Shown here piece after piece: positions 1 to 4,840 of a DNA stretch of 4,840 bases (within the stretch, counting starts at the first letter, position 1; each line of letters opens with the position of its first letter). The notes beneath the pieces were generated by a model. The model was not told the origin of the DNA and ran no database searches. It saw nothing but the letters and a program-made list of their open reading frames with translations. Origin of the DNA: a virus (taxonomy: Duplodnaviria; Heunggongvirae; Uroviricota; Caudoviricetes); IMG/VR virus record IMGVR_UViG_2695420658_000004; one strand, 5' to 3'. Made by a program: the position numbers and the translations under genes.

Positions 1-11
1 TCAACTGATCC

Positions 12-1168
12 TTAACTGATCGGCATTACACCACCGGGACGCGGATTCATATCTTCCAGGTCGCGGCAGTCATTGGAAGAGTAAATTCCCCAGTTGATCC
101 CGGTGGCGTAGGCTTCAAAACGGGACTTCATATCCCCGCGCAGTAACGCCCCGGCGTTAAATTTGGCGTAATAAACGCCCTGCTTACTTTTTCGTACCAG
201 TCCGGTGTTGATCCGCTGTTCGATGCGGGTCAGATACGGCACCAGTGAATAGTTGATAAATCCCAGCCCCAGCTCTTCGATATTGTTGAAGGTGGCGCGA
301 TCGGTGTTCTGCACCATGTGCAACGGCACCCGGAACAGACGACAGATTTCTTCCAGCTGAAACTTGCGGGTTTCCAGGAACTGACTGTCCTCGGCGTTCA
401 GCGCCATCGACTTCCAGTCCAGCCCCATTTCCAGAATCATCGGGCGGTGAGCATTGCCAAGCCCCGTGTGACACTCCTCAAAATCTTTCTTCAGACGCTC
501 GTAAGCATCCGGCGTGAGCTTTTGTTCCGTACGCAACACACCGGATGTCACCGCACCATTACTAAACAACCTGGCACCGTGCTCCTCGGTTGCCGCTGCC
601 AGTGAAATGGCCTCACGCGCATACGCAATGGGATTCAGCCCGACAAGTCCATCCAGCGTCAGGGTGCGCACATGCCAGATTTCATTCTGGGTCAACACAT
701 CCACGGAACCATCCGGAAACGTCACCTGATAAACCGGCTGCCACTGGCTGTTCAGCTTCGGTTCCACACAGCCCGGATCTATCGGAAGAAGCTCCACCAC
801 TTCTCCCAGTGCCTTTACCTTGTAGGCGTAAAAATTCCCCCGTAGACACAGGCAGACAATAACCAGCTCCCAGAATTCCTGCGGTGTCATGTAGCCATTA
901 GGTTTTGCCGAAACCAACTTATGCAGTCGTTCATCCACCGCCCGTGTTTTCAGGGTACCGCTGATTTTGTAGAGACTGCAGGGCAGCATACCAACAGACT
1001 CTGCCAGCACCCTGACGCAAGAATAGACCGCCGTCAGGCGCATGGCCCGCTGGCTACTGATCCGCTTTCCGGTATAGGTGTCGTATGACAGCCCGATAGC
1101 ATCAGCAGTTCTGCTGGCGTGGTCACCGGCACATCGCTTTTTCGTTGAAATAATCCCGAAAAGAACAC
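12..1168 (-). CDS. Phage portal protein, HK97 family; N-terminus apparently disrupted by a 1-nt frameshift near 1092-1094
   Basis: The 415-aa minus-strand ORF (12..1259) has the conserved portal N-terminal motif (RLTAVYSCVRVLAESVGMLPCSLYK) and sits directly downstream of the large terminase, the expected gene order. The nominal start at 1259 is a TTG with no RBS and overlaps the upstream small ORF by about 90 nt. A much better start is the GTG at 1168-1166, which has a GGAGGT RBS 5 nt upstream (1179-1174) and overlaps the upstream stop (TAGTG). That frame reads [26 protein letters not shown], then diverges from the body frame at a GGG run (plus-strand CCC 1092-1094) and stops at 1036-1034. 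Alternative start: ATG at 1043-1041, giving 343 aa with no clear RBS. Confidence 0.8.
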
Positions 1169-1350
1169 TATTTACCTCCGCCGACAGACTGCCGTGTACG
1201 GTCGAGATATCGCGCCACCAGCCACGACCAGAACAGGCACAGCGCCCCGGCAACAACAAAACCCGCCGGGGGATAAATCAGCCAGGCACCATACGCCAGC
1301 AAAAGCGCACCCAGCACGCCCACCAGAGGCGCGAGAATCAGCATGATCAT
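1168..1350 (-). CDS. Small hypothetical membrane protein (60 aa, two predicted transmembrane helices) between large terminase and portal
   Basis: ATG at 1350-1348 preceded by GAGGT (1359-1355) with a 4-nt spacer, 11 nt after the terL stop (TAA 1364-1362). The product [60 protein letters not shown] has two hydrophobic stretches separated by a YPPAG turn and a basic C-terminal tail. Its TAG stop (1170-1168) overlaps the candidate portal GTG start. The position recalls the 60-aa ymfR ORF between the terminase and portal remnants of E. coli prophage e14, but this is recollection of gene order only, not sequence. Confidence 0.5.
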
Positions 1351-1361
1351 AATTACCTCAG

Positions 1362-3095
1362 TTAAAGCGAGCGGATCCCGTAGGACTCAATGTGGTCAGA
1401 CAGCGTGTCTTCTTTCTCGTACAGCATGGCTCTGCCAACCGCCATAATCAGCGCAACTGCACCATCGATTTTGTTTTCCGCCTGCTCTTTGACGGGTTTC
1501 ACCACATCATCGTTACCCGGCATGTTTTTGCCGACCACGTTGCCGATACACCAGGTCATGATGGGATTGCCGTCATGATGAAAACGTCCCGATTCAATCG
1601 CTGCTTCCAGCTCTTTCATCGGATCGGACATATTGGTGAAGTTCTGGACGATAGTGACGGGATTCAGGTCTTCATCAGCAAGGTCATGTGACAACCCGGT
1701 CGCCCCGAAGGGGTCGATGGGTGACTCACTGACCGGGCTGATTTTGTTCGCCGCTTTGGCCTCCTCGAGGATGTAGCGATAATCCACCTCCGCACCATCG
1801 GTAACGGTCAGAACGCCCATTTCCACCCATTTCTGAAAGCGTTCGGCTGTCCGTCGATCTTCATTTTTCTCGACGCTGTACACCGTGTCATACGGTACCC
1901 AGAAACGCGGGGCCACACTGTAGTAATGCGTTTTACCGTCAATCTCGCGGGTATAAAGTCGCGCCATGCTGTTCATATCCAGCTTACGCGCCAGGTCAAA
2001 GGCCAGAATGCACGGCTGCCCCTCGAACTGCTCAAGGGTCAGTGATTTATCCTCGCAGCTCTGCCAGCTCACCAAGTTGAAATACGCCGAACGCGCCGAC
2101 ACCCAGATATTGAGGTGTTTTGTTTTAAAGACGTTTGCCAGACGGGCGTTATTTTTCGCACGCTGCTGCTGACTTAACAAAAATTCGCGATAAACCGACA
2201 CGCCAATATTTGGATTGGCTTTTTCCAGCACCTGCGGGCCGGTCCAGTCGTCACCTTCATCAACGGTATAGATGATCCCGAACAGTTCATCGTTAGGCAC
2301 CGAGCCGTTGAGCATCTCGATGACTTCCCGCCGCTTGTCGTAGCACGGCCCCTCAATGTTGTACCCGGCGGTGGTGATGGCCCACATCAGTGGCTGACGT
2401 CGCGCCCCCATCCCGGTAAGCATTGTGGTATAAAGCGCATCGGTGGCATGCTCGTGATATTCATCAACCACGGCACAGTGGGGTGATGAACCATCACCTG
2501 GGTTGCCGATCAGCGGTTCAAACCGCGCGCCATCCTCCGGACGGTTCATGTTTGAGGCGTTAACCTCAATCCCGAACGCTTCCGTCAGCATGGGTGTGCG
2601 TTTACACATCAGTCGCGCCGGGCGAAAGACTTCCCACGCCTGTTTCTCTGTCGTGGCACCGGAATACACTTCCGCGCCAAACTCGTTATCACAGGCAAAA
2701 CAATACAGGGCAACACCGGCAGAGATTGCTGATTTGCCGTTCTTACGGGGGATTTCGGTGTACACCTCCCGGAAGCGGCGCAACCGGGTGCCTTTATTGA
2801 CCCAGCCAAACGCACAGCAGATCACAAATAGCTGCCACGGCTCCAGCGTGATGGGCATCCGTTTGAATGCCCACTCCCCCTTGGTGTGCGGCAACAGCTG
2901 AATAAATTTCGCGGCCCGTTCAGCCAGGTCCTTGTCGAAGCGGTAACGAAACGACTTACTTTTTTCCGCCATCAGGTCATCAAGATGGCGCTGGCAGGCC
3001 TGAATCACAAACTGGCAGGCAACAATCTTTCCGCGCACGACATCCCGGGCATACTGATTTGCAGCATTTACGTTGGGGTAAGATTTCCGGCTCAT
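1362..3095 (-). CDS. Phage terminase large subunit (577 aa), ATPase plus nuclease
   Basis: Long uninterrupted ORF. A P-loop-like motif (EIPRKNGKS) and a Walker-B-like motif ([10 protein letters not shown]) lie in the N-terminal half, and acidic residues typical of the RNaseH-like terminase nuclease fold ([11 protein letters not shown]) in the C-terminal half. The ATG at 3095-3093 overlaps the terS stop (ATGA, 3095-3092). Flanked by terS upstream and portal downstream. Confidence 0.93.
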
Positions 3096-3439
3096 GATTC
3101 GATAATTTTCAGAAACGGGTTAGTGGCTTTCTTCTGCCCCGCCAGGCCAATCAGACGCTGGCGGCTGCTGGGGTCGAGTCCGAGCATTGCCCCCGTGCTG
3201 CTCATCTCGGACTCCTGTTCTTTTTTGGCGGTCAGCTCCGGATTTTTGACCCTGCCGCCCATTGCACCGGTGATGGTGTTGCCCTGTATGGCAATATTTT
3301 TCACGGCACGTCGCCAGAACTCATAGGCCACGCACCNNNNNNNNNNNNNNNNNNNNNNNNNNNNNNNNNNNNNNNNNNNNNNNNNNNNNNNNNNNNNNNN
3401 NNNNNNNNNNNNNNNNGTTCTTTGGTTGTCAGTTGCCAC
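3092..3439 (-). CDS. Phage terminase small subunit, P27 family; 5' end uncertain because of masking
   Basis: The C-terminal 80 aa read cleanly from 3334 to 3092 ([80 protein letters not shown]) and resemble P27-type small terminases (the [10 protein letters not shown] motif). The stop overlaps the terL start. The track start at 3439 is a GTG with no obvious RBS, and the intervening 3337-3416 is N. The true start could be that GTG (115 aa), or could lie further upstream in the masked block if the N-run length is not exact. Confidence 0.7.
3337..3416. other. Masked/unknown sequence (80 N)
   Basis: Run of n characters in the supplied sequence; lies inside or just upstream of the small terminase gene. 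Confidence 1.
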
Positions 3440-3480
3440 ATGATCGTGGCGAGAGGGAGATCTTCTTCAGCGAACCACTC

Positions 3481-3756
3481 NNNNNNNNNNNNNNNNNNNN
3501 NNNNNNNNNNNNNNNNNNNNNNNNNNNNNNNNNNNNNNNNNNNNNNNNNNNNNNNNNNNNNNNNNNNNNNNNNNNNNNNNNNNNNNNNNNNNNNNNNNNN
3601 NNNNNNNNNNNNNNNNNNNNNNNNNNNNNNNNNNNNNNNNNNNNNNNNNNNNNNNNNNNNNNNNNNNNNNNNNNNNNNNNNNNNNNNNNNNNNNNNNNNN
3701 NNNNNNNNNNNNNNNNNNNNNNNNNNNNNNNNNNNNNNNNNNNNNNNNNNNNNNNN
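3481..3756. other. Masked/unknown sequence (276 N); expected to contain the HNH 3' end and the cos region
   Basis: Run of n characters. The flanking genes (HNH above, terS below) imply by analogy with HK97 that the cohesive-end site lies here, but this cannot be seen. Confidence 1.
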
Positions 3757-4064
3757 CAGCACAGACTCTGCAGGTTGCTGTCTGCGTCTGTTCCGCCATG
3801 CGCTTTCGGGATGATGTGGTCGACGGTTTTCGCCTCGCTCACCACACCGACACGCAGACACAACTGACACAGACCTTTATCGCGCTTCAGAATACGGGCA
3901 CGAATCACCGTCCATTTTGAGCCATAGCCACGCTGGTGGCGGCTCAGTCCGCGCTGGTGCTGCACCCAGCCTTCACCGCGATGTTTATCGCAGTAACCCG
4001 AACTGTCTGTGGTTGTACCTGCACATCCACGCTTACGGCAGGCACGTGGGATTAGTGATGGCAT
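3757..4064 (-). CDS. HNH endonuclease, phage terminase-associated type; 3' end masked
   Basis: ATG at 4064-4062 with GAGGT 4 nt upstream. The visible 102 aa carry an N-terminal Cys/His-rich segment (CRKRGCAGTTTDSSGYCDKH) and the HNH core (CQLCL...DHIIPKAHGGTDADSNLQSLC). The ORF runs into the N block at 3756; the track's 211-aa length is an artefact of stop-free N's, and the real protein is probably around 120 aa. Position immediately upstream of terS matches the HK97 gp74 arrangement. Confidence 0.88.
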
Positions 4065-4106
4065 AAATACCTCATACCCTGCGAAATGTTTACCACGATA
4101 AAAAGG

Positions 4107-4556
4107 CTACTTAATGCACTGAGTGCGGATATACTCCTGTGCCCCTTCCAGTTGCATCTGCATCGTCATCAGCCGCTCTCTGAGGGTGAAATAATCCCGT
4201 TCAGCGGTGTCTGCCAGTCGGGGGCTGGTTGCATTATCCACGCCGGAGGCGGTGGTGGCTTCACGCACTGACTGACAGACTGCTTTGATGTGCAACCGAC
4301 GACGACCAGCGGCAACATCAGCGCGCAGAGTTTCATTTTCAGCTTTCGCATCAGCTAACTCCTTCGTGTATTTAGCATCGAGTGCATNCTGCTGCATGTC
4401 AGTAATGGTTGCGTTCGCCAGCTTCAGTTCTCTTGCGTTTTTGTCGCGCTGCTCTTTGTAGGTAATGGCGTTATCACGGTAATGATTAACAGCCCATGAC
4501 AGGCAGACGATGATGCAGATAACCAGAGCGGAGATAATCGCGGTGACTCTGCTCAT
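4107..4556 (-). CDS. Rz: Rz i-spanin (inner-membrane spanin subunit), lambda Rz-like
   Basis: Starting at the ATG 4556-4554 the product reads [47 protein letters not shown]..., an N-terminal transmembrane helix followed by a charged coiled-coil-like periplasmic domain; near-identical, from memory, to lambda Rz. The ATG overlaps the lysozyme stop (ATGA). The track's GTG at 4568 is probably not the real start. One ambiguous base (n) at 4388. Confidence 0.93.
4169..4351 (-). CDS. Rz1: Rz1 o-spanin (outer-membrane lipoprotein spanin subunit), embedded in Rz in an alternate frame
   Basis: 60-aa ORF wholly inside Rz in a different frame: [60 protein letters not shown]. It has a signal peptide with a lipobox (LVVVGC), a proline-rich stretch and the length and architecture of lambda Rz1. 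Confidence 0.9.
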   Translation of the reverse strand: MRKLKMKLCALMLPLVVVGCTSKQSVSQCVKPPPPPAWIMQPAPDWQTPLNGIISPSESG

Positions 4557-4840
4557 TGCTGCCCCCACAAACAGACTTCACGCTCAATCTCACGACGGGT
4601 CATCAGCCCTTTCCATTGCTTACCGCCAGCATATGTCCAGCGACGTAGCTGGTCACATGCGCCTTTGATATCGCCCTGGTTTATTTTGCGAAGAAGCGTC
4701 GATGTTCTGAAATTGCCAGCGCCCACGTTGTAAACGAACGAGTAAAGAGCGCCGCGCGTTGTTTCCGGTATATCGACTTTGATGTACGGGTTAATTTGTC
4801 TGGCGACAGTGGCAAGGTCTTTATTCAGGAGGGCTTTGCA
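4553..4840 (-). CDS. Phage lysozyme/endolysin, C-terminal 95 codons (5' end beyond window)
   Basis: Hand translation of the minus strand from 4840 gives an open frame [95 protein letters not shown], ending at TGA 4555-4553. It resembles the C-terminal half of phage-21 / DLP12 RrrD-type lysozymes (T4-lysozyme-like fold), from recollection. Absent from the ORF track because the start lies outside the window. Confidence 0.88.

Follow-up and report, generated by a model that had tools for sequence, protein, structure and literature searches.

N runs of incorrect length probably explain an apparent terS frame break and mask an SfI/SfV-type cos region in a prophage remnant of the kind carried by Shigella sonnei

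The DNA considered here, a stretch of 4,840 nucleotides from a virus (Caudoviricetes; IMG/VR record IMGVR_UViG_2695420658_000004) that is referred to in its full length as the window, most probably represents the late-operon end of a defective SfV/SfI-like prophage with HK97-type packaging, of the kind carried by Shigella sonnei, and the runs of N interrupting it are best regarded as placeholders of wrong length, introduced either to mask sequence on purpose or to fill scaffold gaps whose size had been estimated. To this explanation as a whole we assign a probability of about 93%, and it implies that the break of the reading frame seen in the small terminase gene terS would not be biological. 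In genomes that agree with the window in every readable base, the sequence between the HNH endonuclease gene and terS, which is masked in the window, holds a cos site of the SfI/SfV type, as judged from the decanucleotide TGCCCGCCCC and its conserved flanks.

The genes of the window follow each other on the minus strand in the order lysozyme, Rz/Rz1, HNH endonuclease, cos, terS, terL, a small membrane protein, and portal. The lysozyme gene runs off the right end of the window and is followed by Rz (4107-4568) with the embedded Rz1 (4169-4351), both taken from the ORF list. The HNH gene starts at 4064 and is readable down to 3757, corresponding to residues 1-102 of 116, where it enters the second of two long N runs (3481-3756, 276 N). 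Beyond this run lie a readable island of 64 nt (3417-3480), the first N run (3337-3416, 80 N), and the readable 3' part of terS (3092-3336), which codes for about residues 84-164 and the stop codon. The terL gene for the large terminase subunit (1362-3095, 577 aa; from the ORF and its Pfam matches) overlaps the terS stop with its ATG (ATGA at 3092-3095), and an ORF for a membrane protein of 60 aa (1168-1350) separates it from the main ORF of the portal gene (12-1259). A single n at position 4388 lies within Rz, and the readable bases add up to 4483 nt in the four segments 1-3336, 3417-3480, 3757-4387, and 4389-4840. The order HNH-terS-terL-portal was recovered by gene calling at all ten of the ten loci analysed and agrees with the RefSeq annotation, which uses the names "HNH endonuclease", "phage terminase small subunit P27 family", "terminase large subunit", and "phage portal protein" in the relatives. 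Related sequence was matched in 2371 of 5426 complete E. coli genomes. Note that E. coli P470 and similar genomes carry an iss gene (increased serum survival lipoprotein) on the opposite strand between Rz and HNH (L004 5059-5352), a cargo insertion that is missing in the window, and that the hydrophobic 60-aa ORF at 1168-1350 occupies the same position as a 60-aa gene annotated in the relative L004 as YmfR, an e14 prophage protein.

The inconsistency that drew attention to this junction is present in the window exactly as the original prediction had described it, including the coordinates of the N blocks, the 64-nt island, and the single frame that is open across it. The plus strand reads tca at 3467-3469, which is a TGA on the minus strand (3469-3467), and because the distance of 3467 to 3092 is divisible by 3, this triplet shares the frame of the terS stop (3092). 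As written, the frame of the terS C-terminus therefore yields an ORF of only 115 aa with a GTG start (3092-3439 in the mechanical ORF list). The sole minus-strand frame open through the whole island belongs to a different ORF (3301-3870) and contributes a peptide of 21 residues there.

The hidden sequence was recovered by an exact look-up of the 577-aa TerL protein, which led to chromosomes of Shigella sonnei, including that of strain Ss046 (CP000038.1). All four readable segments, together 4483 nt, have exact matches in the right order in five genomes (L005, L006, L007, L008, and L011, the last being S. sonnei Ss046). Over the corresponding stretch of 4849 nt, no difference exists between four of them (L005, L006, L007, and L011). 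Among the complete E. coli genomes, none covers the whole window at high identity, the best value being 93.8%. In the five genomes with exact flanks, the real distances are 51 nt in place of the 80 N, 299 nt (298 nt in L008) in place of the 276 N, and 16 nt in place of the single n. The spacing of the first gap was followed further with a pattern of its two flanks, whose N had been confirmed to match the window's own literal N run. When 50-80 nt were allowed between the flanks, the pattern was found in at least 120 stretches of viral contigs and at two places in a genome of S. flexneri, all of the listed ones with 51 nt, and the same 50-80 nt scan of genome contigs returned only spacings of 51 nt. 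Flanks spaced by exactly 80 nt were found neither in viral contigs nor in metagenome contigs, and the record of the window itself is apparently not among the contigs scanned with this spacing. The 64-nt island itself has an exact copy in L001, L002, and L004-L014.

These lengths account for the frame break directly. The first N run exceeds the real sequence by 29 nt, which is 2 modulo 3, so the island appears shifted by two frame positions relative to the 3' end of terS, exactly the inconsistency noted, and both the false in-frame TGA and the false ORF of 115 aa arise because this run is 29 nt too long. With 51 nt in its place, terS becomes a continuous gene of 495 nt for 164 aa that passes through the island (L011 3510-4004). 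Its ATG lies 135 nt beyond the island and is preceded at a distance of 8 nt by an AGGAG Shine-Dalgarno sequence, while the readable 3' part at 3092-3336 is identical to the S. sonnei terS gene. Thus, one of the three possibilities left by the original prediction, namely that the lengths of the N runs are not true and the gene is longer, is borne out by the reconstruction.

The other two fare badly against the same data. A truly short terS of 115 aa, starting at the GTG at 3439 and preceded by some 300 nt of non-coding cos DNA, corresponds to an ORF that does exist in the window as written. However, this ORF depends on the placeholder of 80 N and gives way at the real spacing to the ribosome-binding site and the Terminase_4 protein of 164 aa. 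The latter is also the length annotated by RefSeq and by gene callers in the relatives, apart from the frameshifted terS of E. coli UTAK-3, and the real non-coding spacer measures 121 nt, so that a short terS has almost no probability left. Likewise, the idea that the island belongs to an extra small ORF between HNH and terS draws on the fact that the frame open across it differs from the apparent terS frame, but this open frame is terS itself, with the island peptide corresponding to TerS residues 46-66, and neither gene calling nor annotation places a further gene between HNH and terS at the related loci; an additional gene can accordingly be regarded as practically discounted.

A more serious competitor is a genuine frameshift or indel that would have made terS a pseudogene in the source genome, with N runs true to length. 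The prophage is decaying, having a frameshifted portal gene that is cut by an IS4-type element, and the homologous terS of E. coli UTAK-3 (L001 1593-2086, 494 nt) is annotated in RefSeq as a frameshifted pseudogene, which indicates that genuine terS frameshifts occur in this prophage family. Against this stands the observation that all three N runs, and not only the first, deviate from genomes that are otherwise 100% identical (80 versus 51, 276 versus 299, and 1 versus 16), and indels restricted exactly to the unreadable stretches are very unlikely. The scans for the flanks of the first gap, which gave only 51 nt in genome contigs and no spacing of 80 nt in viral or metagenome contigs, point the same way. 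A real frameshift is therefore considered improbable, if somewhat less so than a short terS or an extra ORF, and placeholders of wrong length are preferred.

The contents of the gaps are reconstructed from genomes identical at all readable positions, and a private difference of the source genome inside the gaps is formally possible. In this reconstruction, the first N run stands for 51 nt of terS, about codons 67-83 (...LCGQGLLCVTDLAVLERW...), and the island for codons 46-66 in the true terS frame. The second N run, read from 3756 down the minus strand, covers the last 43 nt of the HNH gene, continues through the 121 nt of the intergenic cos region, and extends 135 nt into terS (codons 1-45); since the block is 23 nt too short, positions within it are not expressible in window coordinates and are given below for L011. 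The n at 4388 is replaced by 16 nt, reading AGACAGCGTGATGTTA on the sense strand of Rz and restoring ...MQQRQRDVNALD... in the exact-flank genomes. A one-letter n hiding 16 nt illustrates that any argument from frames or distances across the N runs of this window is unsafe.

The proteins encoded on both sides of the junction fit a packaging module. The reconstructed TerS matches Pfam Terminase_4 (PF05119) over residues 57-147 with E=3.7e-20 and 72.6 bits, well above the cut-off of 24.7; as it exceeds the gathering score, the predicted protein is classified as a P27-family small terminase. It shares 161 of its 164 residues with the TerS proteins of phages SfI, SfV, and SfIV. TerL shows the domains TerL_ATPase (PF03354, 8e-26) and TerL_nuclease (PF20441, 4e-33) and is 26% identical over 522 aa to HK97 gp2 (E=8e-31). 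The HNH gene encodes 116 aa, the final 43 nt of it (...WPCHKAKTARERIR*) being hidden in the second N run according to the reconstruction. An N-terminal zinc-ribbon-like motif of the form CxxxxC...CxxxH, a CQLC sequence, and the DH...N part of the HNH motif are readable in the window, and the last His of the motif falls in the masked part. The full protein matches Pfam HNH (PF01844) over the full length of the model (1-47 of 47) with E=1.6e-16, as well as HNH_5, and shows 34% identity over 70 aa to HK97 gp74 (E=2e-10) and 100% identity to the HNH endonuclease annotated in E. coli FDAARGOS_944. Phage HNH proteins adjoining cos and terminase genes, many of which carry an additional zinc ribbon, are known as a large family of nicking enzymes (PMC3592412), and the N-terminal motif found here is of the same kind as the zinc ribbon of that family.

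Between the HNH stop and the terS start, which the original prediction had asked to be mapped, lie 121 nt that read TAATTATTCTCACTTGTAGGGAGGGGCGGGGCAAATCCCTGTGACCTGACGTCTTCCGGACTGCCCGCCCCATCGTTTTTTTATACCCGCGAAAAATGAAATTTAACCAGGAGTGCCGCAT on the terS sense strand, identically in L005, L006, L007, and L011. This spacer consists of 61 nt including a G-box (GGGAGGGGCGGGGCAAATC), the 10-nt sequence TGCCCGCCCC (L011 3450-3459), which thus begins 61 nt past the HNH stop and ends 50 nt before the terS ATG, and 50 nt containing a T7 tract, the motif ACCCGCG, an A5 tract, and the AGGAG sequence. The search for repeats that had been proposed for the intergenic DNA revealed an inverted repeat, GGGGCGGG/CCCGCCCC, whose arms are 33 nt apart, and TGCCCGCCCC forms the right arm of this dyad. 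Among the 67 related loci that extend far enough upstream, 62 carry the exact decamer at this offset. Among 43 unique variants of the region, the part from the G-box to the ATG is nearly invariant, and the variable positions are found in the 3' end of HNH and just past its stop codon. A search of Rfam with the reconstructed 4849 nt gave no match, no site resembling an intrinsic terminator was detected in the spacer, and the folding of the dyad as RNA did not differ significantly from that of shuffled sequences (z = -1.37). In view of these negative results for an RNA element or a terminator, the dyad is treated as a cos feature at the DNA level.

For phage SfI, run-off sequencing of virion DNA in comparison with the prophage has revealed a 10-nt gap, 5'-TGCCCGCCCC-3', which was interpreted as the cohesive end (PMC3636060). 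With 3' overhangs, the run-off sequences would be expected to leave such a gap and not to overlap. Based on the identity of its decamer with this experimentally mapped site, the spacer between HNH and terS is identified as the cos site. The original prediction that the packaging site of an HNH-dependent cos phage should be found at this junction is therefore right with respect to its location between the HNH stop and the terS start, but not with respect to its extent, the spacer measuring 121 nt rather than about 300 nt. It had also named a combination of findings that would speak against it, and of these a continuous terS frame, a normal ribosome-binding site, and gaps not drawn to scale were indeed observed; the missing cos-like element that completed the combination was not, because cos is present.

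By homology with SfI/SfV and HK97, the module may be envisaged to function as follows. TerL, stimulated by the HNH protein, would introduce staggered nicks around TGCCCGCCCC to generate 10-nt 3' cohesive ends, while TerS would bind just downstream of the cleavage site on the right side of cos, where the ACCCG motif and an A/T tract are located at +14 to +25. Packaging would then proceed rightwards through terS and terL. The gap lengths, ORFs, gene order, domains, and the identity with a mapped cos are direct results of the sequence comparison; the chemistry of cleavage, its dependence on HNH, and the TerS site are proposed in analogy to the phages mentioned.

The copy in the window has probably lost this function. 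When compared with an intact homologue from E. coli, portal shows a deletion of 1 nt near 1106/1107, which splits the true N-terminus (a small ORF at 1034-1168, MFFSGLFQRKSDVPVTTPAEL...) from the main ORF at 12-1259, making portal a frameshifted pseudogene. In addition, its similarity to an intact portal protein extends only to residue 380 of 413, which corresponds to a point some 30 nt short of the left end of the window. The remaining 30 nt or so of the window (1-30) are foreign and adjoin a gene for an IS4-family transposase (L011 7066-8276). Beyond the insertion element, L008 and L009 continue with chromosomal genes, namely a gene for a Ribosomal_S30AE-domain protein, pheL, and the gene for chorismate mutase/prephenate dehydratase. 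The portal frameshift, the truncation by IS4, and the lack of head and tail genes thereafter suggest that the cos/terminase module is probably a relic in a truncated prophage remnant and is not used to package the prophage's own DNA. Mapping of virion DNA ends, which had been put forward as a way to verify the site, is unlikely to work on this copy for the same reason.

A comparison with relatives suggests that cos itself has been subject to mosaic exchange. E. coli FDAARGOS_944 shares the identical HNH protein and the same left half of cos (L003 1308-1457 versus L011 3389-3512), but diverges from the middle of the cos dyad onwards, with a variant cleavage region, GACCGCCCGCCAA, and a TerS that is only 23% identical. 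A variant among the viral contigs (u10) joins a spacer of the FDAARGOS_944 type to a right side of the SfV type. Together, the divergence of FDAARGOS_944 and the combination in u10 place mosaic breakpoints inside cos, a feature which fits recombination at short conserved patches; a functionally bipartite cos as the cause of these breakpoints appears less likely. A specific version of the latter, in which cos would be a modular joint whose left half with the G-box and TCAAATC travels with the HNH and lysis genes, and whose decamer variant and presumed TerS site travel with terS, is rather doubtful, although it is put forward here as a speculation. If the conserved left element served either for recognition by the HNH protein or as a termination signal similar to cosQ, it would constitute a so far unrecognised cos sub-site shared across HK97-type phages. 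The breakpoint within cos and the exact positional conservation of the G-box and TCAAATC between HK97 and SfI-type cos may be viewed as by-products of mild interest.

Compared with known systems, the module resembles that of phage lambda in its site-specific cos packaging, the cohesive ends, the lambdoid genome, and the lysis cassette at the right end. Lambda cohesive ends, unlike the 10-nt ends considered here, are 12-nt 5' ends. Further differences to the lambda system with its cosQ-cosN-cosB organization and Nu1/A terminase are the presence of HNH as an accessory nuclease and the type of the small terminase, since Pfam assigns TerS only to Terminase_4 and not to a Nu1-type family.

The agreement with HK97 extends to the layout of HNH gene, cos, terS, terL, and portal, and to the homology of TerL and HNH. 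The HK97-type HNH-associated cos packaging module (Kala et al., 2014, as cited in PMC11331095) is recognized here by an HNH gene located directly upstream of terS and terL beside cos, ending 121 nt before the terS ATG, by the HNH catalytic domain, as judged from PF01844 and the homology to gp74, and by HK97-like TerL, portal, and prohead protease proteins. The portal belongs to PF04860, and in L004, an intact relative, it is followed by the gene for an HK97-family prohead protease. The lineage of the window itself has a broken portal and has lost the protease to the IS4 element. The comparison of the cos sequences, which the original prediction had called for, shows that exactly 34 nt lie between the end of the G-run with TCAAATC and the right virion DNA end in the records of both HK97 and SfI. 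The cleavage regions can also be aligned, GACCGCCGCCAAA in HK97 versus GACTGCCCGCCCC here, with a GC-rich GAC(C/T)GCC(C)GCC common to both. Downstream of the cut, HK97 has ACCCG and then a T7 tract at +18 to +30, to be compared with ACCCGCG and then an A5 tract at +14 to +25 here. HK97 produces 10-nt 3' overhangs, and its small terminase contacts the DNA at +15 to +29 past the cut, reading a G and the adjacent A-tract, with cos cleavage being stimulated by the HNH protein gp74 (PMC11331095). By analogy, the ACCCGCG motif with its A5 tract suggests a TerS site at the equivalent position of the element described here. Note, however, that HK97 gp1 shows no significant BLAST similarity to TerS and has no Pfam match, so that the model of TerS-DNA interaction from HK97 serves as an analogy only, and that the distance from the HNH stop to the right DNA end is 319 nt in HK97 versus 71 nt here.

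The closest relatives are the serotype-converting phages SfI, SfV, SfIV, and SfII of Shigella flexneri. They share the same gene order, with HNH as the last gene, followed by cos, and terS and terL as the first genes, and contain the same 10-nt TGCCCGCCCC 50 nt before the terS ATG, as well as the left element of G-box and TCAAATC, in which a single base differs (GGGGCA versus GGGTCA). The GenBank record of SfI ends exactly with TGCCCGCCCC and has the ATG of terS at position 51, and in the records of SfV and SfIV the cut falls 7 nt left of the decamer, within the same element. In contrast, the HNH protein is only about 79% identical to those of this group (91-93 of 116 residues), the sequence just past the HNH stop differs, and the window represents a chromosomal remnant devoid of head and tail genes rather than a phage. 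The HNH-cos-terS junction is thus an example of the already known SfV/SfI/HK97-type arrangement, and the cos of a near-identical phage had been mapped before.
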